A stretch of 64,000 bases of DNA from Tieghemostelium lacteum (lineage: Eukaryota). The stretch's first letter is position 1; the number at the start of each line of letters is the position of its first letter. The notes beneath the pieces were generated by a model, which saw only the letters and a list, made by a program, of their open reading frames with translations, was not told the origin of the DNA and ran no database searches. The position numbers and the translations under genes were made by a program. Location: contig LODT01000034.1 of the NCBI GenBank assembly GCA_001606155.1, positions 161,665 through 225,664 on the forward strand, written 5' to 3'. Shown here piece after piece: positions 6,631 to 29,773 of the stretch.

Positions 6631-8292
6631 ATGTTGAAGACCTTAATTAAAAGAAGTAGCTCAGTACTACTAAATAACAGTAAATCTTTGAATAACCTTA
6701 ATAAATATAATATATATAATCAAAAACTATTTTATTCAACTAGTAATAGTAACAATTATAAAAACTATCAACAAAATGAAAATAAGGAATCAGAGAGTAT
6801 ATTTAAAAGAAATAAATTTAATTTAATTGGTAGTGGTATTGCAGTTTCTTTATTGACAGCTGTAACTACAAAGATTCTATTAGAAGATGATAATAGTAAA
6901 AAAGTAGATACACAACAACAACAACCAAAGTCATTAGAGGAATCAAAGAGAGAATATAATATTGAAAAGTTTAAATATGTTATAGTAGGTGGTGGTACAG
7001 CTGCATACCATGCTGTAGATAAGATTCTAGAGAATGACAAGACTGCTGAGGTTTTGATCATTTCTCAGGAATATTCAGTACCTTATCAGAGACCACCTCT
7101 CTCAAAGAATTTGTGGGCTAGTGAAGATCCAGATGTTACCAAAAATCTACAATATACAGATTGGTCAGGTAAAAAGATGGATTTACTTTATGAACCAGAA
7201 TCTGTTTATGGTACTGATGCACTTCAATTTATTCGTACCAAAAAAGTTATTGACATTCATCTCGATCAAAAGATTATTCTGTTGAATGACGGAACTCTAA
7301 TTGAATATGAGAAATGTTTGATTGCAACTGGAGGTGAGCCAAGAAAACTTAATTTCACCTCTAAAGACCAAGAAAAGATCACAACCTACAGAACAGTTGA
7401 CGATTTCATTAAACTACACAACTTTGTACAGGAGGGCGATAAACACATTACTATTCTCGGTGGTGGATTCTTAGGTAGCGAGTTGACATGCGGTATCAAC
7501 CAAAACTTTGGAAAGAAGAAGAATATTAAAGTCACTCAGGTTTTCCCTGAAAATGGTGTATTACCACTAGTTTTCCCAGACTACCTTTCCGAATATGCAA
7601 CTGAACAAATCAAGAAATCCGGTGTAGAAGTACTCAATAAGAAACTGGTAAAAGATGTAGTAGAATCTGAAACCAACAATGGTAAATTAGTTGTTAAATT
7701 AAATGACGATAGTCACTTTGAAACTGACCATGTTGTAGTTGCAGTTGGTATCATTCCAAACAGTAACGTTGCAAAATCTACCAAATTGGAAATTGATCCT
7801 CTCAATGGTGGTATTATGGTAAATGCCGAATTACAAGCACGTTCTGATGTATACGTTGCTGGTGATGTTGCATCTTTCTATGACCATTCTATCGGTCAGA
7901 GAAGACGTATGGAACATCATGATCATGCTAAAGTCTCTGGTGAATTAGCAGGCATCAATATGAGCACAGACCAAAAAATTCCATACACATACCAACCATT
8001 CTACTGGAGTGATTTAACACCAAATATAGGTTTCGAAGCAGTTGGTAATACTGACTCTAAATTAAAAACCTTTTCAGTTTGGGAGAAATCCAATGACGAA
8101 AAAGAAACTTCAAATCAATTTACAAAAGGTAACATCTACTACCTCAATGACAAAAACGTTGTTGTAGGTGTACTATGTTTTGGAAACTATGGTAAAATGG
8201 AAACTGCCAGAAATCTAATTCAAAAGGGTAAAGCTGTATCTGATCTCAACCAACTGCAACACGCAATCTCTCTGGAAGAAGAACATCATTAA
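6631..8292 (+). CDS. aif: Apoptosis-inducing factor (AIF) homolog. Mitochondrial FAD/NAD(P)H pyridine-nucleotide-disulfide oxidoreductase with an AIF-type C-terminal domain, 553 aa
   Basis: FAD-binding GxGxxG (VIVGGGTAAYHAV) and an NADH-binding second Rossmann motif (ILGGGFLGSELTCG). The AIF-specific C-terminal segment (VVGVLCFGNYGKMETARNLIQKGKAV) is present. Basic N/S/K-rich N-terminal presequence. Confidence 0.8.
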   Translation: MLKTLIKRSSSVLLNNSKSLNNLNKYNIYNQKLFYSTSNSNNYKNYQQNENKESESIFKRNKFNLIGSGIAVSLLTAVTTKILLEDDNSKKVDTQQQQPKSLEESKREYNIEKFKYVIVGGGTAAYHAVDKILENDKTAEVLIISQEYSVPYQRPPLSKNLWASEDPDVTKNLQYTDWSGKKMDLLYEPESVYGTDALQFIRTKKVIDIHLDQKIILLNDGTLIEYEKCLIATGGEPRKLNFTSKDQEKITTYRTVDDFIKLHNFVQEGDKHITILGGGFLGSELTCGINQNFGKKKNIKVTQVFPENGVLPLVFPDYLSEYATEQIKKSGVEVLNKKLVKDVVESETNNGKLVVKLNDDSHFETDHVVVAVGIIPNSNVAKSTKLEIDPLNGGIMVNAELQARSDVYVAGDVASFYDHSIGQRRRMEHHDHAKVSGELAGINMSTDQKIPYTYQPFYWSDLTPNIGFEAVGNTDSKLKTFSVWEKSNDEKETSNQFTKGNIYYLNDKNVVVGVLCFGNYGKMETARNLIQKGKAVSDLNQLQHAISLEEEHH

Positions 8293-8536: not shown

Positions 8537-10303
8537 ATGGAGTCAATAATCAGTAGATCAATTAAAACCTGCTTAGAATTTGGCTTTAAAATTGTATTTA
8601 TCATTAGAATTTAACTACACACAATTTAGTATATTAATTTCATACTGGAATTCCTAAACATAGGTTTCATTTTGGGTTAGATTATGGCTAATTCCATTGA
8701 ACTCGGTTTTAGACTGGTTTTATGAACGAGTCTATCCGGTATTCTCACCAATTCTACACTATCTCTTTGATAATAGATCAAAAATCTTGAAAATATCATT
8801 ATATAGTATCTTATTAGTGGCTTTTGCTTTTGTATTAAGTTTATTCTCCTTCTATTTGGTTTATTCTTGTAAAGTCCCAAAAGTTACAACAGAATCTGCT
8901 CTCTATTTTGATTATTCGTATGTCTTTCATCTTCACTAAAAAAAATATCAAAATTAATATCTTGAATATTAATTACTAACACCCACTCATTTTTAAAGAA
9001 ATACTAAAAAACACCAAGTTTCAGCATCTGCTGATTTAAATGCAGAGTTACAAAAGAATAAACTTTATAACATCTATTTAGAATTAGAGTTACCAGAGTC
9101 ACCTAAAAATATTGATATGGGTATGTTCATGGTTTGTATGGTAATTAATAACAATGATAAATGGTCTCCAAATAGAATTCATAGCAATTGTAAACCTGTA
9201 TGTATTTATATTTTTATGATTTATAATATATATTTATTCTAATTAATTCATCATTTATTATAGGCAATGTTAAAATACACTTCTCCACAATTAAAGAATG
9301 TTAAAAATTTTGTAAATATGGTACCTTTTATTTTTGGATTTTATGAAGAGAAACAGTATATTCATCTTCCTATGATTGAAAATCTTTTATCTACTAGAGT
9401 ATGTGTATTTATATCATCAATTATAACTATATTTTGTAATATTAATTTGATTTAATTTAGTATTATCACACAATTTCAATTGAAGTTACTATAATGAATT
9501 CAGATATACAAATTTACTCTTCTTCATTGAAGATTATGGCAAACTTGTCTGGTATTGAATATTATCTTTACTATTACCCATCTCTATCATTTATTATTGG
9601 TGTTGGGTGTTTGTTTATATTTTGGTTGACAACTATAGCCTTCACTTTTGTAGCTGTTTACTTGTATCGTTATTTCAAGACTCATGATATGGAGATTGTC
9701 TCTCAGGAGCATATTGAAGAGGATCATGAAGAACAAGAAGACATTCATCAAGAAGAGTTGCCTATTGGTGAAGAGGAACCATTACCATCTTCTAGTAAAA
9801 AATCATGGGATGTTGATAACAGTGAATTTCTAAAGAATAGATTTTCATCATTTGCACATGTAAATAATAACAATAATGTAAATAGTAACAATAACAATAA
9901 CAATACAAACGCAACTGAGAAGGATACTCTAACTGAGTTACTCAAACAGGAATTAAAAAAATATCAAACAGAACAAAAGAACCTTAAAATGGAAACCTCT
10001 TCATTGGCCAATGTAGATGATAACAGTTTTGAAAAAGATAAATTACAACAACAAACTACAACCATAACCAATAATACTAATAACAATAATTTGTCTAGTG
10101 AATCTGAAATTCTTGAGCCTCAACCCATTATGGATGATTTGTCATCTTCTACTTCTTCAACCATATCTAATTTCACTCCTATCAATACCACCTCTGATTC
10201 TGATTCAGATGACAACAATAACAATAACAATGACACTACAATGTCTCTTTCACAGCTTGACAATAATGACTCAATCAGCAATCTCATTAGAAAAAGAAAA
10301 TAG
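8537..10303 (+). CDS. Seipin (BSCL2/Fld1 family) ER membrane protein. Exons are 8664..8917 (frame open from acceptor 8663, no in-frame ATG), 8999..9197, 9264..9398 and 9461..10303. A candidate ATG micro-exon lies at 8537..8593
   Basis: Conserved seipin core: LELELPESPKNIDMGMFMV, AMLKYTSPQL..FIFGFYEEKQYIHLPMIENL, a second TM helix, and a long N/S/D-rich tail. Introns are 81, 66 and 62 nt with GTATGT donors at phases 2/0/0. The 5' end is uncertain because the 8697 start in the track is a TTG. Confidence 0.65.
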
Positions 10304-10364: not shown

Positions 10365-13300
10365 TTAATTCATATTTGCAATTGCAATCTTTTTGTTAAT
10401 TTGAGCAAGTGATTTCTTATCTCTATATCTCTTGTAGAAATAATAGACTGCAGAAATAGTTACAATAAGTGAAAATCCAACTACCCCAATTATAATACCA
10501 GCCAATTGACTCTTTGTTAATTTTGATGATTTAGAGGATGTTTCACAATTGTTTTTGTTGTTGTTTGGTGATGGAGTGGCAGAGGTATCTAAAAGTACAG
10601 AGAAATCAGGATCTAATAATACTGATTTCTTGAAATTTGGAATATGAATTCCAATGGTTGATCCAACAGATCCTGATGGTAGATTATTATCTTGTGAAAC
10701 TGAATTTGATATTGTTTGAATTCTGTTATCAATTATACCTCTTTTGATTAATCTACCATATAGACTATGGGAATTTACTATTAGTTTAATGTACTGTAAA
10801 TTCTGATCGTCTTGTTCCTCCAGATTGCTATTGGTTGATGAACTTCCATCTGAACATTCACTATTGTCAAATGACTCTATTGAAGCACTCATTACTAATT
10901 TTAGAGTGTTCAAATTGGAATCAAAGGAGTATGGTGAAATTTCAATTTTGTATTTAATTGATGATGGAAGCATATCAAGGAATTGATTGGCAAAGAATAT
11001 TGTTTCTTTTTGTTGGAAGTATTGAATGATAACTTTTACATTGGTGGTTAAGTTATTGTTTGTAATATTAGATTCATAAGTATATTCATTGATTCCTTTC
11101 AAATCAGATTGAGAAGTGGTGTTACTGAATATCCATTGAGAGAATTTATGAATTTTGAAATCATCTCCATTTTTGTTCAGTTCATTTAATGAGATTACTG
11201 AAAGTAAAGTTCTGAGTGAAACAGTTTGACCATCAGGTAATGTGGTGTTGAAGTTATTATCAATATCAGGATTGGTGGTGTTGATAATAATAGGAGGTGT
11301 GTTAACACCAGATAAAGAACAATCATTTCCTCCCCAATTTCCAATACAAATACATCCTGATATTGTACAACTTCCATGATCAGGACCACTACATTGAGGT
11401 GTTCCTGGACATGTTGTTGCTGGTATCAGTTCATATCCATCAGGCATTGGTGCACTGTTCGAAGGTAACTCAACAGTTTTGATTGATGAAATGTTTTTAT
11501 CCATTGGTACTTCAATGATGATAACTGTGTTGTAACCTTCAATTACTGGTACAATTTGAGTCTCACCATTTGAAAAAGTGATTTCAACATTTTCAATTGT
11601 TCCTAAATTTTTACCGGAAATAATTACTTCACCAGATGGTGTTGGGATTGAAACAGTTTCAATGACACTGTAATTTCTAGAGAGAATAGTATCAATTTTT
11701 AGATTAAACGTTCCTTGATACCCAAAGTTTAACATTACATCAGCAAATCCAGAAACAGTCCATTGTATTGGGTATCCTTGACCAAAACCATATGGAAGTG
11801 ATTCAAATAAACATGAGTAAGTAATTAACATATCTCCAGCTCCAAATATTGATGGTTCACATTGAGTTGATACATATTCAAAATATATAGCATGAAGATA
11901 GAGGGTTGGTTTATATCGTCTACTAATTGGATTAGTGTCGTCTTTTACTGTAAATGTCAGTTTGTAAGTTCTGTTGAAATTTGTGACATCAAGTGATATA
12001 TCTGAAATATGGTTGATAAAATAGGGTAACCCCACATCAGCAGGACAATTTTGGGATGAAAATATAAATATAGATAGATATGGTGTGTAATCTTCCACTA
12101 GTGTCATGAATGGGTCTATATCTGTGAATTTTGGTGGGTTGGTAACACTAACAGATTTAATGTATGACAAATCGTTATAGGTACTTTTAACACCTGCACT
12201 ATCAAAAAGCTCAATATAGGTAATGGTGAATTTTTGGGTTAGACATTGTGGTGATACAAAAAGAGGAACTTCAACCATTTGTATTTTAATATCAGGATTA
12301 CCAGAGAATTCAATGATATAAGGATTACCAATATCAATATCAGATGTTACTTTAATCAAACCATGTGAAAATCCATTTACATCATCTCTAATGGTTAATG
12401 TCCATCCAATTTGTGAACCACCTTCGATTATGTTTCCAATATTTGTTATCATTGGTGGCATTCTATCAGCATTTTCAGATGTAATTTTCAATTGACCAGT
12501 TGAAGGGAACATTAAACTATCAAATTTAACAGTTCTGTAATATACATAATAGGGTATAGTGCCAGTGAATAAATTCTTTGGAATGATGAAATCAGCTTTA
12601 TACATTTGATATTGATTATCCCAAATTCCAAAAGTAGTAACATCAATACTGTAGAATTCAATTCTGATAATTTCATCGTGATGTGCATTGGTGAAATTGA
12701 TGAATAATGTATTTGGACATTCACTTCCAGTAACATCAATTACACCACTAATTGAGAAATAAACCCTATCCAATTGAATAACTGATTGTTCATCTATTTT
12801 AAATATTAATATTATTCTTTTAATTATTAATATAATAATATGTACATACATAAATTGATAGTCATTGGATAGTTTTGAATTGGTGGCATATATAAAGGTG
12901 AAAGAGATGCAAAATTTCCAGCAATATCATAAACAAGAATAGGTTTTTCATACAGTGAATATGTGTAATATGAACTTTTGTTCCTGAAATCAACAAAAAT
13001 CTCATAAATACCATCAAAGATATCTCCACTAACTATATCACTTGGGAATATTTGTGCAAATCCATCGAAAACAATACTATAGACACCAGAACCACTGTCA
13101 GTTGCATGAACACGAATAATAATTTGTTGATATCCAATATTAATAATTTCAATACCAAGAATATTTGGTGAAAAAAGGTCTTTGGGAGTAAAGATTTTGA
13201 TTAGTTAATAATTCTTTAAATCTAAACATTGAAGAAAACATACCGCTTGCTAAAAAAGGTGGATGATAATTTGCATAGAATACCTTTCCGAGACCAGTTG

Positions 13301-14736
13301 CTGTCAAACCTATGTTGCCAATATTTAAGAAATTTGGTATATTGGCATAGTAACCAGTTACCATATTGCCATTGGTTTGAGATTTCAAACCATATGGATA
13401 AGAGACCCAAATTGTTTTTTTATAACCTCCATAAGACAGAGTTACCTCATAGTCATATAATTGTCCTGAACATGTCATTTGTAAGAGATACAAACTATAC
13501 ATATTTAAAGGTGTGGTGTCTGTTAAAGTCATTGGTTCTGCAAGAAGTTCTATTATAATAATATTAGTTATAAATGGAAATTCTAGTTCAAAAAGTAACT
13601 AACATACCACTATATTCAATTTGAAATAAATCGGCATAAGTTAAAGTGGAGTTACTATAGTAGGTGGTACCACTTTCAAAAATTGTATTGGTGGCATACT
13701 GTATTGTCTTGTAATAGAATAACAGGGTTTTACTATTCGGGTTACCAGCAACTACTTTAACAAGATAAGGGTTTTGAACATTAATAACTGGTGTAAAATA
13801 TCTATCTTGATAATCATCTATATTAAATGTTAAATATATATCTCTGTATGCTGCTTGGGGAAATACTGGATAATAATTGTTTTTTGTATATATCGTTGGT
13901 ACAAATATTTCTAAGAAGTTTAGAATAGTTAGAAATAATTGAACAATGTTGTGTGAGTCAAAATAGTACACTTACCATCTTTCAAAAAAGTACCCAAATT
14001 AAAAGGAGTGGCATTATCAACATTTACTGAATCTAAAATTCTAATGATAATATTTCCAAATGGCCCTGAGAATGTTTTGTTATAAGTAACTGCGCAAGAT
14101 ACTTTTAAAACAGTTAATCCATATTGTTCAAATAGACATTTATATCTACTATCATCCAATACAGCCAAATTTACAAGATTAACGTATTTTTCTAAATTCA
14201 ATTTGAGATAGGTTTGATAGTAACCATCTTGTACTAAATTCTTCCAATTTTTGTATTGGGTATTAGTGTTAACTAGAGGATTAGGCATTGTCAAACAACT
14301 CCACATGAAATTTGGTGATGTAAAATGGAGAGTTCCAGTAACAAGGTCTCTAATAGTGAGATACAATGAGCCTTGTGTACCGAAATTAGGTTCAATAACC
14401 AATTCAACTAATTGATTGTTTGATTCTAGGTATTGAAATCTATTTAAACTAATTGATGTGATATTAGGTGTAGACATAGCTGTTAAATGATAACTTGAAA
14501 AATCTACATTTGATGTTATCTCAAAATGATAAGTTAATTTACATTGTTGACTCGAAAAAGAAGTGCTATCTGGATAGATATTAACATCTTCTGGGTTTAA
14601 TAGTGATATCTCGTAATTGTGCGCTCTATCTAAATAAAGATTCCTCTATTAATTATTCAATATTCAATACTGTAATTTAAATCTACTTACTAGTACTATA
14701 TATAATAAATATTAAAATGAATAATAATCCTTTCAT
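10365..14736 (-). CDS. Large type-I surface glycoprotein (1355 aa) with IPT/TIG-like Ig-fold repeats, an EGF-like Cys module (CPGTPQCSGPDHGSCTISGCICIGNWGGNDCS), a TM helix and a short cytoplasmic tail. It resembles the Tgr-type adhesion family. Six exons: 14736..14691, 14629..13976, 13910..13608, 13549..13244, 13179..12850, 12793..10365
   Basis: Signal peptide MKGLLFILIFIIYST. All introns are 56-72 nt with GTAAGT/GTATGT donors, phases 1,1,1,1,1. Frames cross-checked against the ORF track. IPT-like motif PTPSGEVIISGKNLGTIENVEITFSNGETQIVPV. TM LAGIIIGVVGFSLIVTISAVYYFY. Confidence 0.7.
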
Positions 14737-14868
14737 TTTTTAATTGATTAGCATTAAATGTCAATCGAATGAAATCACAATTTTAAAAAAACAATAACAA
14801 GAAAGATATTTATTTTCAAATCCAAATCTAAAAAATGTCAACTTTTCTTTTGAAAACTTTCCCTCCAT
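14737..14868. promoter_or_regulatory. 132-bp divergent intergenic region between the ATG of the 10365..14736(-) gene and the ATG of the 14869..16563(+) gene
   Basis: Start codons at 14736 (minus) and 14869 (plus). Spacer is extremely A/T-rich. Confidence 0.4.
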
Positions 14869-16563
14869 ATGCAACTATCTAAATTAATATTTATAAAAAT
14901 ATTTAAATATCTACAATATAACTTTGAATGTAAAGAAAAGGCACAATTTAAAATCTATAGATTAATTTACCTTTTGAATAGGGATTGTAGAGATTCTATC
15001 TCGCCTCTTTTTAAATACCAATTTCAATTGGGTTACCCAAAAAGTTTAGAAAAGTTTTTCAATAACAATTCTTATCGAGAGACTTCAGATATAACATTGT
15101 TAATGATCGGAGTTGAAATCAACAAAGAACTATATATATATGAAGAACATAAAAACCAGATTATACCTCTTGTTACTTCATTAGTAGTAGATAAAAATCA
15201 ACTAGATCATTTGAAAGATTATTCTTCTGGAAATGTAGATCATTTAGGAATATATCTAAAAGGAGGTAATAATGAATTGGCCCAGTTTGAAAAACCCAAC
15301 AGTTTTCCATCATTGAAATCACTTTCATTGTTTATAAGACATGAATTTAATGCTTCCATTCTATCGAGTGTCTTTCAAGGATTTAATCAGCTACATAGTA
15401 TCAAGATTCAATCCGTTCATTCTTCTCATATTCAAATTGCTTTGAATCTTGGGAGTTTAAGAAATCTTCACCATCTAAAAAGACTTGAACTAATTCAATT
15501 ATTCATATCCCAAGAAACTGAATTGAATGTGCTTATTAGTACACAAAGATCAATGGAAACTCTAATTATCAGGGAAATTCAAACTCATCCAGGTCATGAA
15601 GAACATGTACAAAACATTCATAGAATATTTACGGAGCTAGAACAAAATCAAACATTGAAAACATTTGAATTATATGGGTGTTTGAATGACCTAGCTATAA
15701 ACACCCTGTTTATCATCAATGCTATAAATAGGAATTCTACATTGACTACACTAATAATAGAGCACAACCACGATATAGTTGAAGACGATCTTGCCACACA
15801 AGGGCTACTAAGCATTCACAATGTAACTTTAGAAAATTTCAAAACATCAATTTCACTTCTAAAAGTACCCAAATTTTATCTCCACAGTCTTTGGTCCGTA
15901 CAATCGAAAATAAGGTCAATAAGATTATCAGAAAGCTCAAATATGGCTAGTTTTAATCACTTTCATCAAGTTAGAGAAATGATCTATAACTATTCATCAC
16001 AGTTGGCACCACTAATTGGTATTCTATCATTACATCACCCAACATTGAACACAATAATAATGGAAGGAACAGTAGCCGAATGTAAAACTTTAGAATGGAA
16101 AGAACTATTTGAGTCCATTTCAAAAAATAGATATATTCACACACTGAAATTTAAACATAGTGCAATACCCGTTGAGCAATTACTCATACTTCTCAGAATG
16201 AATATACCACATATCAGCAAACTACATGTTCTGTTCAACTCAATAACCTATGAGATAATAGATTCAATAGAACAACCACTTATGCAAAATCCATATATTC
16301 ACAAGATTTCAATTGATTCAAAATCTAAAATCACTAGATATAACCATTCTCTTATATTAATGCTATTTGATTGTCCAAATTTGAGATGTATTAAATCTCA
16401 TTGTAAAATAGAAAAAATCACCAATGAACAATTTAGAAAGTATTTATTTAATAATTTGTATCATTTGGAAAGAGTAGATATCTTTGGATTGACACCATCA
16501 CTTGATTATTGGGTGCAAAGATATTTTTTAAATAAAAAAACAACTAGTGTGGGTCTGCTGTAA
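14869..16563 (+). CDS. F-box-like / leucine-rich-repeat-like family protein of 564 aa, lineage-specific family
   Basis: N-terminal LSKLIFIKIFKYL is F-box-like. Repetitive L-rich units (NQTLKTFELYGC, NRNSTLTTLIIEHN). Single exon with a true ATG at 14869. Confidence 0.55.
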   Translation: MQLSKLIFIKIFKYLQYNFECKEKAQFKIYRLIYLLNRDCRDSISPLFKYQFQLGYPKSLEKFFNNNSYRETSDITLLMIGVEINKELYIYEEHKNQIIPLVTSLVVDKNQLDHLKDYSSGNVDHLGIYLKGGNNELAQFEKPNSFPSLKSLSLFIRHEFNASILSSVFQGFNQLHSIKIQSVHSSHIQIALNLGSLRNLHHLKRLELIQLFISQETELNVLISTQRSMETLIIREIQTHPGHEEHVQNIHRIFTELEQNQTLKTFELYGCLNDLAINTLFIINAINRNSTLTTLIIEHNHDIVEDDLATQGLLSIHNVTLENFKTSISLLKVPKFYLHSLWSVQSKIRSIRLSESSNMASFNHFHQVREMIYNYSSQLAPLIGILSLHHPTLNTIIMEGTVAECKTLEWKELFESISKNRYIHTLKFKHSAIPVEQLLILLRMNIPHISKLHVLFNSITYEIIDSIEQPLMQNPYIHKISIDSKSKITRYNHSLILMLFDCPNLRCIKSHCKIEKITNEQFRKYLFNNLYHLERVDIFGLTPSLDYWVQRYFLNKKTTSVGLL

Positions 16564-16750
16564 AGAACAAATAAAATCAAAATTTAAATTAATAATGATA
16601 TCAAATTGTAAGCACCTAGGTCCTACAAAAAATCATGAAATACCACATTGAAATTTTCTTTCAAAATGAAATTTACAATGTCTATTCAAATATCCAATAA
16701 ATAAAATTTTCTTGATAGGTTAATAATGATAAACTTTATTGATGTACTTT

Positions 16751-19700
16751 TTAATTCAAAGTTGCAATCTTTTTGTTAATTTGAGCAAGTGATTTCTTAT
16801 CACTGTGTCTTTTGTAGAAATAATAGGTTGTGGATATAGTTACAACAAGTGCAAATCCAACTGAACCAACAATAATACCAGCCAATTGACTCTTTGTTAA
16901 TTTTGATGATTTAGAGGATGCTTCACAATTGTTTTTGTTGTTGTTTGGTGATGGAGTGGCAGAGGTATCTAAAAGTACAGAGAAATCAGGATCTAATAAT
17001 ACTGATTTCTTGAAATTTGGAATATGAATTCCAATGGTTGATCCAACAGATCCTGATGGTAGATTATTATCTTGTGATACTGAATTTGATATTGTTTGAA
17101 TTCTGTTGTCAATAATTCCTTTTTTGATTAATCTACCATGAAGAACATGTGAATTGAGATTTAATCTAACATAAAGTGAGTTTTGGTCTTCTTGTTCTTC
17201 CAGATTGCTATTGGTTGATGAACTTCCATCTGAACATTCACTATTGTCAAATGACTCTATTGAAGCACTCATTACTAATTTTAGAGTGTTCAAATTGGAA
17301 TCAAATGAGTATGGTGAAATTTCAATTTTGTATTTGATTGATGATGGAAGCATATCAAGGAATTGATTGGCAAAGAATATTGTTTCTTTTTGTTGGAAGT
17401 ATTGAATGATAACTTTTACATTGGTAGTTAAGTTATTGTTTGTAATGTTAGATTCATAAGTATATTCATTGATTCCTTTCAAATCAGATTGAGAAGTGGT
17501 GTTACTGAATATCCATTGAGAGAATTTATGAATTTTGAAATCATCTCCATTTTTGTTCAGTTCATTTAATGAGATTACTGAAAGTAGAGTTCTGAGTGAA
17601 ACAGTTTGACCATCAGGTAATGTGGTGTTGAAGTTATTATCAATATCAGGATTGGTGGTGTTGATAATAATAGGAGGTGTGTTAACACCAGATAAAGAGC
17701 AATCATTTCCTCCCCAATTTCCAATACAAATACATCCTGATATTGTACAACTTCCATGATCAGGACCACTACATTGAGGTGTTCCTGGACATGTTGGTGC
17801 TGGAACAAACTCATATTCATCAGGCATTGGAGCGTTATTCGATGGTAGCTCAACAGTTTTGATTGATGAAATGTTTTTATCCATTGGTACTTCAATGATG
17901 ATAACTGTGTTGTAACCTTCAATTACTGGTACAATTTGAGTCTCACCATTTGAAAAAGTGATTTCAACATTTTCAATTGTTCCCAAATTCTTTCCAGAAA
18001 TGGTTAATTTTCCAGATGAAGATGGAACTGAAACTGTTTCAATTACACTATAGTTTCTAGAGAATACAAATGGTGATGTTAAATTTGTAGTACCTTGGTA
18101 TCCAAAGTTTAACATTACATCAGCAAATCCAGAGGCTGTCCATTGTACTGGGTATCCCTGACCAAAACCATATGGAATCGATTGGAAGGTACATGTATAG
18201 GAAATGTATATATCATTAGCTCCAAATGTTGTTGGCTCACATTGGGTAGATACAGTTTCAAAGAAAATAGAGTGAAGATACATTTTTGGTTTAATTCTTC
18301 TACTTAAAGCATTTGTATTTGCAGTGTCTCTAGCTGTGAATATCAATGTATGTGATCTATTGTAGTGGGAAGTATCAACACTATTATAAGTTACAATGTT
18401 GGGAATGTAAGGTGGAAGGGTATCAGCAGTACAAGTAAGACTGCTAAGGATTTGAATAGATAGAGAAAGGGTTGCACTATTAATGATTGAAATGAAAGGA
18501 CTTATATCTTTGAATACTGGTGGTTCAGAAACACTTGCTGATTTAATGAATGACAAATCGTTATAAGTACTTTTAACACCTGCACTATCAAAGAGTTCAA
18601 TATAGGTAATGGTGAATATCTGGGTTAAGCATTGTGGTGATACAATTAATGGTGCTTGAATGGTTTGTGTAATGGAATCAGGTATACCTGTCAATTCAAT
18701 GATATAAGGATTACCAATATCTAGATCAGATGTTACTTTAATCAAACCATGTGAAAATCCATTAGGTCCATCTTCAATTGTTAATGTCCATCCAATTTGT
18801 GAACCACCAGCTATTGTGTTATCAATATTTGTTATCATTGGTGGCATTCTATCAGCATTATCAGATGTAATTTTCAATTGACCAGTTGAAGGGAACATTA
18901 AACTATCAAATTTAACAGTTCTGTAATATACATAATAGGGTATAGTGCCAGTGAATAAATTCTTTGGAATGATGAAATCAGCTTTATACATTTGATATTG
19001 ATTATCCCAAATTCCAAAAGTAGTAACATCAATACTGTAGAATTCAATTCTGATAATTTCATCGTGATGTGCATTGGTGAAATTGATGAATAATGTATTT
19101 GGACATTCAATTCCAGTAACATCAATTACACCACTGATTGAGAAATAAACCCTATCCAACTGAATAACTGATTGTTCATCTATTTTAAATTTCAATATTA
19201 ATATATTAATGGATGTAAACTAATTAACATATATACATACATTTTGAATTGATAGTCATTGGATAGTTTTGAATTGGTGGAATTATGTTTGGTGATATTG
19301 AGGCACTATTACCAGCCATATCATAGACTATTGCAAGTTGATCATAAATTGAAGATGTAAAATATGAACTTTTGTTTCTGAAATCAACAAACTTTTCATA
19401 AATACCATCTAATTTATTACCACTGGCTAAATCACTTGGGAAAAGTTGTGCAAAACCATCGAAAACAATACTGTAGACTCCTGAGTAATCATCAGTTGCA
19501 TGAATACGAATTATAATTTGTTGATATCCAATATTTATAAATTCAATACCCTCAATACTTGGAGCAATTATATCTATAGAAATGTTAATTATTAATCTAT
19601 AAAAATATATTATTTTAATACATACCATTAAGTGTGAATGTTGGTGGTTGATAATTTGTATAAAATGTTTTTCCAAGACCTGTAACTTTAAATCCCAGAT

Positions 19701-21128
19701 TAACAGAATTTTTATAGGGTGGAGCATATGCATAGAAGCCAGCTTCCATTATACCATTGTTGAGTTTAGATTTCATACCATCTGGATAAGATACTAAAAT
19801 GGTTTTTTTATAATTTCCATAAGATAGAGATACCTCATAATTGTATAATTGTCCTGAACTTAACATTTGTAAGAGATAAAGATTATATAAATTTGTTGGA
19901 TTTGTAGCAGTTAATGTCATTGGTTCTACGAGAAGATCTAAAATATTTAAATATTAGTTAGGGTAATTGCTATACAATATATTAAGACATATGCATACCT
20001 GATGGAGAATAAGTATATAAACTATTATATACAAAAGTTGAGTTAACAAAGTAATTTATAGCCATTTCAAAATTATCCAAAGCTCCATAACTGATAGTTT
20101 TGTGATAGAGTAACATGGTTTTACTATTAGAATTACCAGCGACAACTTTAACAAGATAAGGTTTCTGTATATTGATAACTGGTGTAAAATATCTATCTTG
20201 ATTATTATCAATTGGAATCTTCATATAGATGTCTCTATAGGCCAGATTTGACAATGAGTTTACCATTGTACTAGATTGAAAAATTGGTATTATAGGAGCT
20301 AGATAAAAATAGTTAGTAAAATCAAGGTAACTATTTAAATAAATCTTTGGTACTACATACTATAATTAATAAAAGTACCTATACTTAATTGGGTAGAAGT
20401 GTCTGGATTCACTGAATCTAGAATTTTAATGGATAGGTCTCCAAATGGTCCTGTAAATGCAGTGTCATAGGCAATGGTACATGTTAACTTTAAAATGTCA
20501 AATCCAAACTGTTCAAATTTACATGTATATATATTGCCAACTAAAATAGCTAAATTTTCCAAATCGGCATATTTATCTAAATTCAATTTTAGATAAGTTT
20601 GATAGTATCCATCTTGTCCTGAATTCTCCCAGTTTTTGTAATTATTATTTAGAATAGTAACAGGTAGAGGCATAGGTTGACATTGATACTTAATGGTGTT
20701 AGATCTAAATACTTCAGTTGCACCATTGCTCATGTTAATGTAAAACGAACCTTGTTCACCAAAGTTTGGATTTAAAGTTACTGTTACCAATTTATTGGAT
20801 GACTCTAAATAGGGTGAGGACATAACAATTAAATTACCAACAGTTGGTATAGGTATAGCATCAATATCAAAATTTAACATATCAGCATCACCATTGTCTT
20901 CAGATATTGAAAATCTATAAGTAATTGAACATTTCTGTGTAGAATAAGTTAAAGTATCTGGATAACTATTTACAGAGTCTGGGTTTAATAATTGAATTTG
21001 ATAACCATCTACAATATTTATAAATGTTAATATACTATATAAAAACTTTTTCTGATTGCCATTTTCAAAAATTTATATGTACCTGAACAATAAAGAAATA
21101 AAAGTAAACAAAATAATAAAATTTTCAT
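16751..21128 (-). CDS. Paralog of the 10365..14736 gene with the same architecture and 6-exon structure (1355 aa). Exons 21128..21083, 21008..20361, 20298..19999, 19937..19626, 19573..19241, 19179..16751
   Basis: Intron positions and phases are identical to the paralog. Introns are 52-74 nt. Signal peptide MKILLFCLLLFLYCS. The last about 1.2 kb and the 5' part of exon 6 are near-identical at the DNA level to the paralog. Confidence 0.7.
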
Positions 21129-21569: not shown

Positions 21570-24500
21570 TTATTTTCTCTCATTACTGTGTGTATTTGAT
21601 CTTTTCTTTTCAGTGTTTACAGAGATACGATGAGATTCATCTAAAAGTGATGGAGATGAAAGTGAGGTTGGTGATGTTCCAATGGGATTGAGAGCATGTG
21701 AAGGTACTGCTGAGAGTGTAGGTGACAATGGTGAATTGTTATTATTATTACTATTAGATGAACTATTTAAAACTTGTAAACTTTTGGATAACAAATCACT
21801 TTCTTTTTCTTTGAATCTAACTGCTAAAACTTTACATTTGTTCAATTCTTTCTTTACATCTTCTCTTTGTTTTTCAATTGGTAATAGATCTTGGTTTGGT
21901 ACAAAGTCAAGTAAAAGTTCTTCTAAACTTATATAAGCCTGCCACAGTTGCAATAAATGTTGATAGAGGTTGCATACTGCATAACTGAATCTAGTCTCTG
22001 CAGTTTGAATCTGTAATTCATCAGAGCTTATTCCATTTTCAAAGAGTTTAGCTCTGGTATTGTTAGTTAGAGTTCTCTGTTCAGTGTAAATATTGAGATA
22101 GTTTGTGAAATTTGCAATACCCTTCTCACGTTGTTCCAAAAATGGTGATTTTACATTATGTGTCTGAGTTGGTGAATTGGCTTTAAATGTACTGGTATTA
22201 GGTTGTTGTTGGTGTGCTATATAGTTCTCCAAGTGTTTCTTGTATCTCTCTGCAAGGGATTGAGTATTGTGCACTTCCGTTGCAGATCTCACAAAATTTG
22301 GTTTCTCAAAGATATCAACAGTCAAAGCTGAGACCTCTGATGCAATAGATATAATGAGCGGCAGACACTGATTGAACAAAGTCTTGTATTCAATGGTTAT
22401 GTGTTGAATTAACTGATAGGCTGCAGTAAAGACATCAAATAGATCCTTCTCAGAAGTGAATTCAATCTGCTCCGAACAACTATTCCACCAACTTTTTGCG
22501 GCTGTTACATTGTAACTTAGAGTTGTCAATGCACTGTTGGTATGGAACTGCATGTTTCTAGATAACGTTGGAGAAGATGACTGAACTGATTTTCTATTCT
22601 GCCCACCTGATAAGGTAGTAGGAGATGTGGGCTGAGTTGATAGCCCTGCTAGAAGGTTTCCACTACTTCCTGATCCTGCACCTAGAGATATAGGTGTAGG
22701 GTTAGTGCCTTGGCTTGATATGGATGATGTAGAACCACTGGGAGACTTCAACAAATCCGCATTGGAAACTGCATGTGCGAGTGGATTGCTATTCAACGAA
22801 TTAGATCTTGAACTGGGGTTAGAAGGTATATCATCATTCATGTCACCTAAACCCTCCAAAATATCATTGAATCCTTGGAAATGAGGGAAATTGTGGAACT
22901 CTAAATTGGGCTCAAAGTCATTGGATCTAAGTGTATCAGTATTGTCATTATCAATATCAGAAGATGGGTTGTGACCTATAGAGGATGTAGTTGCATCATT
23001 ATCAGAAATGAAATCATCGATATTGGAATCATAAATCTTTTGTGGTTCATCTTGAGTGCTAAAGAAAGTCTCGAATATCTGAGTTGTACTGTACATTGAT
23101 TTAGCCAATTGTGAACTGGTAGCTGATTTAGCACAACTGTCAAGAACCTTCAATAGGTAACTAGCAGATAACAATGTACCTCTGTCCACCTTATTTGTGA
23201 ATTTCTTTACAATTCCAGTAGATCTACTAGGTTTCATGCTGGCATTCTCAATTGCCACAAGATTGGTTGGTGAATTTCCACTGGTAATCTCAATGAATCT
23301 TATAGCTTGACTGACGTTATAGTGTGGTGATTTGTGATCATTAATCAGTTGAGTTACAGTATCATACCAATCAGCAACACGAGAAGATCTGGTATCAGCT
23401 GGATTGACACCACCTTTAACTAGAGCTGTTAGGATCTTAAGTATAGGATACTGGTATTCTGAAGGTCCAAACTCCAACATATTGAAAAGTAAACTGAATA
23501 CCAATGTACTATTCTTGATGACAGATTCACATAGTGGAGGTGACAAATCTTGTAAAAACTGATCAAATTGACAATAGTAGACTTCGTGGCTGTAGTTATT
23601 GAAAATAGTTGAAAGTCTAGTTAACCCCATATTCTCAGCTAGTTCGGATATGTGTTCAGCAGTCTCTATGCTAAGGTAAGTAGGCTCACCAATAGTTATA
23701 CACAGGTAAGGTAACAATGCAACTAGATTTGTTATAAATCTAACTGGATCAGGATGGAAAAGTTCATCACAAGGTTGTAAAGTGATTTTGGATAAGAACT
23801 CAACTGAGATTTGTGCGGTGTTAGGTGACATTAAACCATTGATTATCAGTGGTTGCAACCCACGGAAATTCTCCCATTCCTTAGGTAACGATGCTAAGAA
23901 GACGTTTTGAACAGCTCTATCTGAGAAATTTACAATGTCCAGTAGTAAAGAGAGAAGTTTGATTGCACCGATAAAGTGTTGTTCAAATTCAGTGTGTAGT
24001 ATTGCCATGGTACCCCAGAATATCTGTGGAAATAGAATGAGTTTAGAAGGATGAATACACTTGACCATCACTTGAAGTGTCTCTAGAATCTCAGAGACTA
24101 GAATGGCATTCTCCGGTGAGAGATTCTGTAGGTATTTACCAAGACTCTGCATAACTTCAGTCAGAGAATCTATGGTAGATGTTGGTTCTAAACCTCTGAT
24201 TATCTGATACGATCTCATTGCCAGTCTTTGGTTAGGTGAGTTTATAGCATAGTACAAGGCAGTGGATCCCCAATGTTCTTTAAGTTCTGGACTACCATCA
24301 CTAAGTACAAATACCACACGTTTGGAGAGTGTAACTACATATTTAGGATTAGAAATATCCTTTTTGTTAGCAGCCATTGCTAGCTCTTTCAAAGATCCAC
24401 TAGAGGCATTTTCGTCAATTCTATAGACAGATGGTAATAAAGAGTCAACTAGTTGAATGGCATCATCGTATATGGGGTTGTCAATAGTACCACCTTCTTG

Positions 24501-27500
24501 TAACTGGAATTTCTTTATAACTAAACATCGGATGAGATTCAATAATAGCAATCTACAATGTTCATGAACATGTTGATGATTGTAATATAATCCCAAGAAT
24601 ATCAACTGTAATAACGATGGTAAATGTATACGAAACTCTTCACCAATTTCAAAAGCAACTTCACTGAGGAATATAAGTGGTAACTGTGATCTATTAAGTG
24701 ACGACTTCAAAGCAGGATTAGCATTATGAAGTTCAGTTGCAATTTGAAATTCATGTGAGATACTTGAAATGGTATTATAATGTACATATTCATGACCTCC
24801 TCCTCCACTACCAGCACCACTTGGTGGGCCCATCTGTGGGTTCAACTGATTTTGTGGACTACTTTGATTACTATTAGGCAATCTATTAAATTTAATTGAA
24901 TTTTGAGCTTTACTCAGAGTCTTGATATCACCATAATCAATGAGAGTCTGTTGAGTTTCAGTGGTTGTAGAACTAATTTCATTTACCAGACAATTAATGA
25001 GTTTCTGTGGAGATGATCTTCCAAGGAATATACAAATTCTCTTAAACACTGGAATGAGATCATGGTTTCTAGTTCTCTCTACAATTCCCAAGATAAACTC
25101 AATAATCACACCGATGTTCTCTTCATTTCTTCCGAGAATTCTCCAAATGTCTTCAATGAGATGACTGTGATTATCAGAGTATTTTCTACTGATTAAAATC
25201 AGTCCTTGTAATACTGGTTCCAGCAGAGGATGTTTAGGAGCCTTGTTAGATAGATGCATTTGTTTGACCCAAGGTTTAACATAGTTCAACATTTGTTTTT
25301 GGTAATCTGGTTGAATGACTTCTAATCTATAGACAATGTCCAGGAATATCTCGTAACATAACTCAGGGTTCTCCAAAGACAGTTTCTCACTGAGTTGGTA
25401 TTGACTATTGATATAAGTCTCTGGAATATCAGATCCAATAGCACTAGGATAATAGGTGTCATTGTAAGCCTCTGGTGGATTGGATTTAGTGGACTTGATC
25501 AAACTTAGCAATTGTAAAGACTGTTGTCTTACAGATGATAATCTAGAGCCGGTATTGAGAATGATGAGGTTTGTCATGATGGAATCTGAATACTCAAATT
25601 TAAGTATCTGGTCTTGAGAGAGTTCAACCAATGATAAAAAGTATCCATTTGCAACGTGGAAGTTGGTAGAATAACACTGGTTGACACAATGGTAGATTAG
25701 CTCCTGATGAGTTAGATTATGTTTGAGGAAGTTCTCTAAAGCCAGTCTAGTCACAGATCTCATTTTGGTACGTAACTGGAACATGTTGTTAATCCACTGG
25801 AAAATGACTCCAGAAGGGTCTCTAAAGGTATCAATAAAGTAAGGCCCTAGTAAAGTAGCACTGACAGCATGAGTGGCAACACTGGCTAGTTGTGAGGCAT
25901 GTTCTTGAGTTCTATATTCAATGTCTTTTCTCTTTTGAGCTTCTTTCTCTTCTTGTTGTGAAAATGAGATAAATCTTCGAATGGTACCATCTTCTCTCAG
26001 GAATTCTTCAGATTCCGACCACTTACTGAAACATTTAAACAGTTCACGTCTATGTATTTTATCTAGAAATTCATGGCCACCCAAATACAGCTGTTGGACA
26101 ATTCTATGTATCATGGCACAGAAATTGAATCTAATGTAATGTAGACCATCCCAGAGATACTCATTCGACTCAAAAGTCTGGAGGAATGATAAAATCTCTT
26201 GAATGAATTCAAAGTAGCTCTTTTTGAGCATTTCTCTTCGAACTAGTTCACCATGTCTAAGAGACTCCAAACAATGTCTACGAATGCCTATAACAGATTT
26301 AATGATATCCGATTTCTTTTTGGATGTCTTCTTGTTGTGTAACTCATGTTCAAAAGGTTTCAAAACATCAAAGAGAACCTCGAGAACATTTGGGTTGGTC
26401 TTCTCCAATGCCATCAATGCAGATTCTGCAAAGAATTTATCCATACTCTTGAGATAGGGTATAATGAGATTGAATAGCTCTCTAGCGGAAGAGGGTGCTA
26501 ACATCTCCAGTAAATCACTCTGTGAAGATGACCCACCACTAAGAGCTGGAGGGTACCCCAGCTGAGCTTGTTTAACTAATCTTGATTTAACATCCACACT
26601 AGTACTATCAGGAATCTGTATAGTTATACAAGAGAAAACTATATAGTTCCTCCACAGTACCCATAAAGCCTCTTGTTCTGGTGATATTGATGACTGATTC
26701 TTTACAGATTCGTCTGGTTGAATAGGCTTTATACGCAGCAGTATAAGTTCACTAGCCTTATGTATAGACATTGGACATAGCTCACAAGCAGTCTTGGTAA
26801 TATCAGCCAAACAAGCTGTCCATAGAATCTGGTCTTCCCTAGACTCACTTTCAAGTATTCTTTCAAAATCTTGAGGTGATCTCTGACGTTTATAAAACTT
26901 ATTAGTATCAGGATTCTGGTTTTGCTGTATCTGTTGTTGACCAGGTTGATTTCCTCCATTAGGCATCTGCTGTTGCTGTTGTTGTTGTTGAGATGATAAA
27001 AAGAAGTTTTGTGCACGGTATAGATAATCATTACCATTCTCGTCTATAATGTCCTTGATATATGTTGAAATCTCGATATCCTCATCACCAGCCTGCACTC
27101 TAGCCTGAATAAACGACTCGCAAACAGTTCGAATAGACTCCAAAATCGATAGACATATTTTTCTTACACGTCCAGAAGATGAACATAAAAACACAATAGC
27201 AACAGGTTCGACTTGAGCACGATCTGGTGGATTGACATCCGATGTGTCCTGTTTGAATTTAGGTTCATCTGCGTCCTCTATAGAAGATAGTGAAAATTTT
27301 CCATTTTTTGATCGAGCCCAGCTATCTAGGAGTTCACGAAGTTTCTCAAGAATCACACTGATGAGAGCAGGTTGTTTGTCGTGTAGAGTTGTGAGAACAT
27401 TTCTTCCAAGACCATTGATGATCTGTGACCGGATATCAGGACGACTTGCCATCAACTGGGTCAATACTATACTTGATTTCTCACAAACCCCTCTGTCTAA

Positions 27501-29773
27501 GTGAATGAGTTGTTTAGACAGCATGGTTACCAAATCATGCACAGGAATTCTCAGAGGGAATGCAATGGGGATTACAGATATCGCAATCTTGAGAAGATCC
27601 AAACAGCTGTTACCAGGTGGACGTGCTTTCTCTAAAAGTTCATTCAAGGATTTTGTCTGATTACTTGTTAACATGCTTCCAAAAGTTGGATCGAGAGCCA
27701 GTAAGATGGAACTCAGGAAATTACTAATGTTCTTGAGGTAGGGTTCAATCAGTGATGTTGATGTCACTTTCTTGATATTCAACGTTCCATAACGTTGTCT
27801 TCGAACTGCACGTGCCTTGTTAGAGCTGTTTACTACAGGATCGGGTATAGGGGATGTTGAAGGACTTTGTGATGGAGAATGAGTAAAAGACAGCATTTTA
27901 GGAGTCAGAGGATTGGTTCCAGCCTGATCAATAAGCATCACAGCTCTCAACCCTATAATCATTCTCTCTGGGTTAGTTATATACTCTTTAGGCTCACCAC
28001 CTCTAAGTAACTCAAAAATGATCTTTTCAAAGGCAAAATCAATTCTAGTATTAGCAATGACACATATTATATCAACAAATATATCTAAACTATCTGAAGC
28101 TGATAAAGTCAATCTCTTACTGTGTCCAGGTGGAAACACATAGCTAACCAATTGATGCAATCTTTCGTATACCTCTTCAGGCTGTTCAGAATACTTTGTC
28201 AAATAACACTCCAACAAATATTGCACAGATTCCAAACAATAAGGTCTAATTGTCTTCTCCTTATTCTTTAAGAAACTCTCCATCAAACCCCAATAATACT
28301 TTAAAAATGTTTCTTTATCACTACAACACAATAGTATAGACATTAATGGATATGATGTCTATTCATTAAAAATCAGAGTTAATAATAATCCAAGATTTTT
28401 TATCATTGTAGTAGCTCTACATACAATCATATTTCTAGTCTTTTTCGTCTTTTTTGATATAATGTCATAGAGTTCTCTAATAGTTCCTAACCAATCTGTA
28501 TAGTTTAATTCTGGTTTAAATTTCTCTTCAGTTAATGGTCTTAAAATAGATGCTAAAATCTCAGCAGTTGCCCTTCTAAGATCACCTTTAATTCTAGGAT
28601 TTTTAAATAATTCCAAATAACTAGCTAAAAATTCATGTGATTGTTTTAGTTTAGAGACTGATGATATCTATATTAAATGAAATGTAAATAATCAAAGTGT
28701 GGATATGATTGGGAATGAGTGGTGATAACCTTACTTTAACTTTAAAATATCTTATACCTTGTAGAATTGGAAATGTTTTTGATTTTAAATTTGAAGAGGA
28801 GAAACATAATTGAAATTCTTTAAAGAAACGTGATGACAAACTTTTAAGTCTGTATTTTGAGAGTTGTCCCAAGATACTAGCACACAGATCAGGAATGATC
28901 AGTGGTGAACTATTTCCAAGACGTCTCTCTAATTTAAAATTATCAAAACAAATTGATTCAATCTGATTGGCAATGGTATCATTGAGATTCTCTTTTGTTA
29001 GTGATCCCAATATGCTTAATAATGATGTACAAAGTATATATTCTACAATTAATTTATATCTTTCATCTACCATTGGTGTTATATCCCTTTTAGTATTTAT
29101 ATCGTCCCTATAAGATTTATATTAAATTTAGATATATAAAAAAAAATGTTAGATATATCTTAGATTTAGATCGGAACTGATGTGTTATTAATACAAACAT
29201 TTTTGGTTTTGATATTGATTTTGCAGGTATAACATGTTGAGAAGATCTCCATTGAAGTAGAGCTGCTGCTATTAGGTTTAGAAAGTATTTTGAGACTTCA
29301 GTTAGACCTTCAATGACTTGATGAAATGTTTTTGATTCAGGTCCTTCAAAGAAATCCTCTATTCTAATCTTATCATCACGAATGAAAATATCAATTTTCA
29401 CTTTTGTATGATCTTTAAAGTCACCTAGTAGTTTAAACATTATATGATCAGCAGGTAGAACCTTTACATTCATACCTAAATTACTGCTACTACTATGACC
29501 ACTATTATGTATCTGTTGTTGTGATTGTACTTGATGATGATGATGATGAAGAAGTGTTGATGCAGAACTAGTTGTACTACTACTGCCACTAGATACAACT
29601 GAGACACTGGATACATTACTAGATATCAAATTTGTACTTCCACCACCTCCAACCTGTGTACTAGATACAGCAGTACTACTCATACTGCTACTGTTGATTG
29701 GATTGTTGGAAGAAGAGTCCATTGATGATGAATCACCACTTCCATTACTTCCAGTTCTTCCTCTAACCATCAT
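21570..29773 (-). CDS. Furry (FRY/Tao3/Mor2) homolog, a giant HEAT/ARM-repeat cell-morphogenesis scaffold of about 2659 aa. Exons 29773..29199, 29107..28735, 28667..28425, 28358..21570
   Basis: Furry-domain matches include ..FHQVIEGLTEVSKYFLNLIAAALLQWR, TSYPLMSILLCCSDKE (cf. ALYPLVTCLLCVSQKQ), TRIDFAFEKIIFELL, NPERMIIGLRA, YYQLSEKLSLENPELCYEIF and HVHEHCRLLLLNLI. Introns 2 and 3 (67 and 66 nt) have GTAAGG/GTATGT donors. Intron 1 (91 nt) requires a phase-2 donor, with a GTTTGT candidate at 29198, and is less certain. Confidence 0.75.

Follow-up and report, generated by a model that had tools for sequence, protein, structure and literature searches.

A 64,000-nucleotide stretch of the genome of Tieghemostelium (formerly Dictyostelium) lacteum (contig LODT01000034.1, positions 161,665 to 225,664; here called the window, in whose coordinates all nucleotide positions are given) carries two tandem paralogs of a ComC-like gene, here designated genes A and B. 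The alignment of the two genes is a mosaic in which nearly identical, moderately similar, and deeply diverged segments alternate within one exon. Very probably, the ComC-like gene was duplicated in tandem long ago, and interlocus gene conversion, limited to the long last exon, then acted on the copies in two or more waves. The observations described below establish the mosaic and its statistical significance, three age classes among the segments, intact reading frames, and the family to which the two proteins belong.

Gene models were built from long open reading frames (ORFs) spliced across short GT-AG introns. Gene A (DLAC_07328; positions 10365 to 14736) and gene B (positions 16751 to 21128) are both on the minus strand, point in the same direction at a distance of 6.38 kb, and each consist of six exons encoding 1355 amino acids. 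The exons of gene A are at 14736-14691, 14629-13976, 13910-13608, 13549-13244, 13179-12850, and 12793-10365, and those of gene B are at 21128-21083, 21008-20361, 20298-19999, 19937-19626, 19573-19241, and 19179-16751. The two models are identical to the deposited ones, the translations matching residue for residue the proteins P0001 ("hypothetical protein DLAC_07328") and P0002 ("EGF-like domain-containing protein"), which both come from one 884-kb contig. All 10 introns are of the GT-AG type, 52 to 74 nt long and in phase 1, and protein alignment placed the five introns of gene A at positions homologous to those of gene B. The tandem arrangement, the identical six-exon structure, and the coinciding intron positions and phases reported in a first-pass annotation of this DNA were thus borne out. 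Both reading frames are intact, and the proteins are 71.9% identical overall. The window is AT-rich, with a GC content of 27 to 39% per 2-kb interval and ~30% over genes A and B. No third family member was found by tblastn within the 64-kb window.

The mosaic was mapped by global nucleotide alignment of the two genes with a 100-nt sliding window and by segmentation with a three-state hidden Markov model (HMM), and synonymous divergence (dS) was calculated by the Nei-Gojobori method on the codon alignment. Four young tracts were identified, all on the minus strand: (i) T1 (gene A, 12437 to 12804; gene B, 18823 to 19190) has 4 mismatches in 368 bp (98.9% identity; dS, 0.029) and covers amino acids 548 to 667; (ii) T2 (gene A, 11469 to 11603; gene B, 17849 to 17983) has no mismatches in 135 bp (100% identity) and covers amino acids 944 to 988; (iii) T3 (gene A, 10810 to 11416; gene B, 17190 to 17796) has 7 mismatches in 607 bp (98.8% identity) and encodes the EGF-like module together with the greater part of the ComC supersandwich domain; and (iv) T4 (gene A, 10492 to 10727; gene B, 16872 to 17107) has 2 mismatches in 236 bp (99.2% identity) and encodes the last part of the supersandwich domain as well as the juxtamembrane region. 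Altogether, the tracts contain 13 differences in 1346 bp, which are scattered and paralog specific; the seven in T3 are all synonymous, with no nonsynonymous change. The longest exact run of identity between the genes (249 bp) is found in T1. The 5' edge of T1 is located ~11 nt inside intron 5, the remainder of which is diverged, and this is the only extension of any tract into noncoding sequence. T2 lies in the Ig-like domain directly before the EGF module, in a region that is ~80% divergent among other family members.

The segments of the intermediate class, with nucleotide identities of 85 to 92%, are also on the minus strand. They comprise G1 (gene A, 12307 to 12436; gene B, 18693 to 18822; 87.7% identity; dS, 0.20), an HMM-defined segment at 12154-12259 in gene A and 18540-18645 in gene B, the 85-bp segment G3 (gene A, 11713-11797; gene B, 18093-18177), which falls inside the coordinates of the exon 6 core described below, and a segment encoding the transmembrane (TM) helix and tail (gene A, 10382-10491; gene B, 16762-16871; 85.5% identity; nonsynonymous divergence [dN], 0.145). 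The first-pass annotation had placed the homogenized part of the pair in the membrane-proximal, EGF, TM, and tail regions. This is too simple: T3 and T4 do cover the EGF module and the juxtamembrane region, but the TM and tail segment is not among the young tracts, and the mid-ectodomain stretch at amino acids 548 to 667 is among the most homogenized parts of the protein.

The remainder of exon 6 is old. Its core (gene A, 11604 to 12153; gene B, 17984 to 18539; minus strand) runs from the C-terminal part of DUF7035 through DUF7034 into the beginning of the Ig-like domain that follows, and outside G3 it is 61 to 67% identical, with a dS of 1.1 to 1.4 (in gene A coordinates, nucleotide identity is 61% at 12153-11798 and 67% at 11712-11604). 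Two relic islands, again on the minus strand, separate the young tracts: I1 (52 bp; gene A, 11417 to 11468; gene B, 17797 to 17848; 75% identity; dS, ~1.6) is located between T2 and T3, and I2 (gene A, 10728 to 10809; gene B, 17108 to 17189; dS, ~2) between T3 and T4. The core of I2 (10760-10809 in gene A) is 60% identical. In I2, gene A keeps the family consensus YIKL...HSLYGRLIKRG, and gene B has the derived residues YVRL...HVLHGRLIKKG; I2 of gene A lies at a distance of 0.44 from the outgroups and that of gene B at 0.55, and B departs further from the family consensus. 

The 5' part of the genes, which comprises exons 1 to 5 with introns 1 to 5 (gene A, 12850 to 14736; gene B, 19241 to 21128; minus strand), is likewise old, with 64% nucleotide identity and a dS of 1.05 in exons 1 to 4 and 0.64 in exon 5. 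Introns 1 to 4 and both flanks are ~50% identical, which is the random level, and cannot be aligned beyond the splice signals. Homology between the genes stops ~10 nt before the stop codons, and no tract enters the 3' untranslated region. An identical block of 34 nt was also seen at the end of exon 5 (12853-12886 in gene A and 19247-19280 in gene B), where it encodes PPIQNYPMTIN; between this block and T1, intron 5 is identical at 41 of 61 positions and has an indel. The block was considered as a separate microconversion but was judged not significant, as it amounts to 11 codons, the motif that they encode is conserved, and the genome is codon biased; it probably reflects constraint and codon bias.

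The patchy identity noticed in the first-pass annotation, which extended to synonymous sites, was therefore recovered by the sliding window, the HMM, and the heterogeneity of dS, although some of its figures have to be adjusted. The two blocks described as more than 95% identical are very similar but reach only 94.1% (10365-11560) and 94.8% (12290-12793), since both contain older stretches next to near-identical tracts. For the diverged parts, to which an identity of about 40 to 60% had been ascribed, protein identity is 53.6% in exons 1 to 5 (44 to 71% per exon) and 64.9% in the intervening part of exon 6.

The synonymous divergence is strongly nonuniform along the genes, being 1.07 at amino acids 1 to 440, 0.60 at 441 to 533, 0.073 at 534 to 709, 0.89 at 710 to 943, and 0.139 at 944 to 1355. 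Uniform divergence, which the first-pass annotation had named as a finding that would refute it, was rejected for synonymous sites (chi-square test in fixed 40-codon bins; P = 3e-25 for the whole gene and P = 3e-20 for exon 6 alone). Among codons for identical amino acids, the longest run of same codons was 98, compared with a mean of 29 and a maximum of 70 in 10,000 permutations, and there were 223 runs compared with the 279 ± 9 expected. The segments fall into three discrete classes: a young class (T1 to T4) with a dS of 0.036 (within-class P = 0.37), an intermediate class (G1 to G3 and the TM and tail segment) with a pooled dS of 0.27 (within-class P = 0.72), and an old class (exons 1 to 4, the exon 6 core, and both islands) with a dS of 1.12 (within-class P = 0.84). 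About one-third of the amino acids that A and B share in the old class are encoded by different codons. Since I1 and I2 share the saturated dS of the old class, they appear to be relics that were never converted and not fresh clusters of mutations.

A comparison with other members of the family points in the same direction. When six other T. lacteum paralogs were used, the ratio of the A-B distance to the outgroup distance ranged from ~0.9 to 0 along the protein. At amino acids 941 to 980, the other paralogs differ at ~80% of the residues, whereas A and B differ at 0 to 5%, and the identity between A and B consequently does not track protein constraint. Among 149 family representatives, the closest outsider was 26 to 65% identical to A or B depending on the segment, A and B were mutual nearest relatives in every segment, and no third-party donor was seen for any segment.

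Recurrent gene conversion, as had been suggested in the first-pass annotation, is the best explanation of the three classes. From the pattern, we infer the mechanism of recombination, the number and order of the events, and the reason why the 5' part escaped as follows. The duplication would be old, its synonymous divergence of ~1 being saturated. Homologous-recombination repair would then have repeatedly used one copy as the template for the other in nonreciprocal events that overwrote 135 to 607 bp. An older wave would have left the segments that are now at a dS of ~0.27, and a recent wave would have produced the four young tracts; the existence of distinct young and intermediate dS classes is the reason why at least two waves are needed. 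The two ~50-bp islands and the ~550-bp core would never have been converted and would retain the original divergence. Conversion would have been limited to the 2.4-kb last exon because this is the longest unbroken stretch of homology, and the 5' part, in which five diverged introns leave no piece longer than 650 bp, may have been spared because it was too divergent for recombination. T1 ends within DUF7035, and T2 begins in the middle of an Ig-like domain; as the tract edges cut folded domains and one edge lies in intron 5, the edges seem to have been set by DNA events and not by protein domains.

Several points weigh against this history. T1 to T4 are of equal age and could be the product of one complex event with discontinuous repair instead of four, in which case the term "recurrent" rests mainly on the contrast between the young and intermediate classes. 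The between-class P values (1.5e-7 to 4e-58) are optimistic, since the HMM segments were set post hoc on the same data, whereas the fixed-bin chi-square test is unaffected by this. The mosaic was derived from two DNA sequences only, those of A and B, and the comparison with third sequences was made at the protein level as distance ratios. In addition, the GC content at third codon positions was not enriched in the tracts (0.18 to 0.23, compared with 0.17 to 0.21 in the background), so that no footprint of GC-biased conversion was found.

Pairwise dN/dS was 0.08 in the young class and 0.30 to 0.33 in the other classes. The exclusively synonymous differences in T3 indicate that purifying selection has acted on both copies since the last conversion, and both copies appear to have stayed functional. 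The distal ectodomain had been described as diverging in the manner of polymorphic adhesion or allorecognition families in the first-pass annotation; however, dN/dS in the distal part is 0.31 to 0.36, and no 40-codon window along the pair had a dN/dS above 1. No sign of diversifying selection was thus seen in this pairwise comparison within one genome. The pair might conceivably act as a functional couple, in which the old N-terminal half, the DUF7035/DUF7034 core, and the islands would encode paralog-specific binding and be shielded from conversion by selection, while conversion would keep the shared stalk identical; the pair would then be a ComC-family analogue of the Tgr recognition system in a group 3 dictyostelid. 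We consider this unlikely, and as far as sequence can tell, the mosaic gives no evidence of a recognition function.

The repeated conversion of an old pair has to be distinguished from the opposite course of events, in which A and B would be recent duplicates (~1% divergence) that have imported their diverged segments from other family members, as in antigen variation or in MHC-like systems. With 841 representatives, of which T. lacteum itself has many, the very large family could supply donors, and short diverged islands amid near identity do resemble small imported patches. However, the outsiders closest to the diverged segments are at best 26 to 46% identical to them, compared with 38 to 76% identity between A and B; the library that was searched merges sequences of more than 50% identity, and a hidden donor is to that extent still conceivable. 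Moreover, the 5' 1.9 kb, all introns, and both flanks are diverged, and their import would amount to a nearly wholesale replacement that kept the intron positions exactly. The islands also share the saturated dS of the rest of the old class. Import is therefore very improbable.

Tandem paralogs in the same orientation are also the classic substrate for reciprocal unequal crossing-over, which might have given chimeric genes, and double-length family members are present in other genomes. A single event of this type, however, leaves one switch point and a change in copy number, whereas at least eight switches between old and young sequence are found here in 2.4 kb, two full-length copies persist, and the unique gene between them (14869-16563) is intact. 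There is accordingly little chance that crossing-over produced the mosaic.

An assembly collapse that would explain the identical tracts had been named as a possible refutation in the first-pass annotation. The copies are 6.4 kb apart and have common tracts of several hundred base pairs, and mis-mapping of short reads between tgr paralogs of Dictyostelium discoideum has been documented (bioRxiv 10.1101/2025.10.22.684067), so that reads could in principle have been collapsed or cross-assigned to give false identity. The T. lacteum assembly was obtained from 1.5 million 454 reads at 29x coverage of 23.4 Mb, which implies a mean read length of ~450 nt, and consists of 54 gap-free contigs (PMC4931340); it was finished by a fosmid map and primer walking. 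The longest exact run between the genes is shorter than such a read, the tracts carry paralog-specific differences that are scattered along their length, and errors would give neither intact frames nor the exclusively synonymous differences of T3. We thus judge an artefact highly unlikely. The weakest explanation, in which no conversion occurred and nucleotide-level purifying selection (codon bias, mRNA structure, or embedded elements) preserved parts of the pair after one old duplication, might draw on the strong codon bias of this AT-rich genome and on the EGF and supersandwich part being the best conserved in the family but is scarcely credible, as neighboring segments of a single exon differ 30-fold in dS (1.12 versus 0.036), the T1 and T2 regions are 60 to 80% divergent among paralogs, and codon bias that allows different codons for about one-third of the identical amino acids in the old class cannot yield runs of 98 same codons.

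Protein A is predicted to be a membrane protein of type I. From its N terminus onward, it is built of a hydrophobic leader, Ig-like beta-sandwiches, an EGF-like module, and the ComC supersandwich domain, followed by a TM helix at amino acids ~1310 to 1335 (based on hydropathy and the structural model) and a short cytoplasmic tail. Pfam domains identified in A were DUF7743 (amino acids 436 to 534), DUF7035 (655 to 783), DUF7034 (810 to 906; 51.9 bits), the EGF-like DUF7949 (1008 to 1039; 32.5 bits, with a cutoff of 27), and ComC_SSD (PF22933; 1053 to 1280; 70.0 bits in A and 70.9 bits in B, with a cutoff of 24), the last matching positions 2 to 222 of the 222-position profile. B has the same domains except for DUF7034, which is above the threshold in A only and was not reported in B at an E value of ≤0.1. 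The corresponding region of B (amino acids ~810 to 906; ~18190-18480) is located inside the old unconverted core, and B appears to have drifted further than A from the family profile there.

The label IPT/TIG used in the first-pass annotation was not supported, as neither full-length protein matched this domain in Pfam (PF01833/IPR002909) at an E value of ≤0.1, and a scan of segments at an E value of ≤10 returned only Ig_TgrO1 (PF24612; amino acids 944 to 1000), which was below threshold (14.8 bits, compared with 27.9). The accompanying description of an Ig-like ectodomain with EGF and TM regions was fair. An AlphaFold2 model of the exon 6 product, made from a 78-sequence family alignment (mean predicted local distance difference test score, 86.4), shows four successive beta-sandwich domains, a small EGF-like module, a large all-beta domain at amino acids 1053 to 1282, and a C-terminal helix. 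In a Foldseek search against the PDB, the model resembled multidomain Ig-like and fibronectin-III-like ectodomains, such as those of gp130, LILR/PirB, fibronectin, and alpha-2-macroglobulin.

Based on this domain set (DUF7743, DUF7035, DUF7034, DUF7949, and ComC_SSD), A and B are assigned to the dictyostelid ComC-like family. An exhaustive search recovered 841 representatives at 50% identity (613 at an E value of ≤1e-10), which are mostly ~1350 amino acids long and align end to end. Word-index protein searches with the full protein, with a 28-sequence profile, and with the EGF and supersandwich region returned almost nothing (2 to 3 matches, compared with 841), and the word index seems to be flooded with dictyostelid proteins that are rich in Asn and of low complexity. 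Sampled members originate from T. lacteum, Heterostelium album, Polysphondylium violaceum, Dictyostelium firmibasis, and D. discoideum and are unnamed or annotated as "EGF-like domain-containing protein". Conservation within the family is highest in the C-terminal part with the EGF module and the supersandwich domain, and the next-nearest paralogs are 43 to 44% identical to A across exon 6. Four proteins encoded at other loci (P0004, P0007, P0010, and P0018) are 2450 to 2770 amino acids long and contain two full copies of the architecture, each half of P0007 being 58 to 60% identical to P0052; such double-length members may be either fused tandem genes or merged models of adjacent paralogs. 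No other locally near-identical pairs were found in an all-against-all BLASTP comparison of 151 representatives, which is uninformative because the library merges sequences of more than 50% identity.

An intact ORF of 564 amino acids on the plus strand (14869-16563), unrelated to A and B, is located between the two genes; it is head-to-head with gene A (132 bp from ATG to ATG) and convergent with gene B (187 bp from stop to stop), and no Pfam match was obtained for it even at an E value of ≤5. As this ORF is present as a single copy in the window, the original duplication unit left no second copy of it. Gene A is convergent with a seipin-like gene (C-terminal exon with an Asn-rich tail; 9494-10303, plus strand), beyond which an AIF-like oxidoreductase is encoded (6631-8292, plus strand), and a homolog of MOR2/PAG1 (Furry) is located directly upstream of gene B (21570-28343, minus strand). 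These flanking genes are ordinary, conserved, and single copy, which indicates that the pair is not part of a large hypervariable family cluster.

The pair shows concerted evolution within a surface-protein family of an amoebozoan in a clean and quantifiable form, with three age classes and relic islands in one exon. It suggests that interlocus conversion, described in 2025 for the tgr genes, also operates in the very large and almost uncharacterized ComC-like family. For such genes, family trees and dN/dS need to be built per segment, and the mapping of short reads to such pairs is unreliable.

In D. discoideum, mosaic blocks of identity and divergence among tgrB1, tgrB2, and tgrBps have been read as interlocus conversion (bioRxiv 10.1101/2025.10.22.684067; Holland et al., PNAS 2025, PMC12745789). 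Genes A and B share with the tgr genes their place in a dictyostelid surface-protein family, the clustering of paralogs, and the discrete mosaic blocks. However, membership in the Tgr type, to which the first-pass annotation had likened the pair, is not supported: (i) the proteins lack the Pfam IPT/TIG domain and carry ComC_SSD together with DUF7035, DUF7034, and DUF7743, a ComC-like domain set; (ii) the genes are in the same orientation with an unrelated opposite-strand gene between them, whereas tgrB1 and tgrC1 are a head-to-head receptor/ligand pair with a common promoter; and (iii) they form a simple pair amid housekeeping genes (seipin, AIF, and MOR2/Furry), whereas the tgr genes lie in a hypervariable hotspot of 100 to 250 kb. 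T. lacteum is, moreover, a group 3 dictyostelid, and unlike the tgr genes, whose alleles vary extremely between wild isolates and which act in kin discrimination, A and B are known from the sequence of one genome.

In a compilation of genes essential for development, ComC of D. discoideum has the entry "Has EGF domains, S+T" (PMC4931340). A and B resemble it in having ComC_SSD, the EGF-like DUF7949, one TM helix near the C terminus, and an N terminus like that of a signal peptide, but their nearest D. discoideum matches are unnamed proteins that are ~41% identical over the EGF and supersandwich region.

Short-tract conversion among tandem duplicates in which divergent islands are kept by selection or for mechanical reasons is well known from the primate opsin, globin, KIR, and MHC genes and has been treated in the models of Teshima and Innan. 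Genes A and B have in common with these systems tracts of hundreds of base pairs with sharp edges, age classes that fit repeated events, unconverted islands inside the converted region, and conversion within the longest uninterrupted homology. There is no difference in principle, the pair being found in an amoebozoan with a 70% AT genome, and genes A and B are thus a new example of a known process, ordinary gene conversion between tandem duplicates, with no new mechanism.

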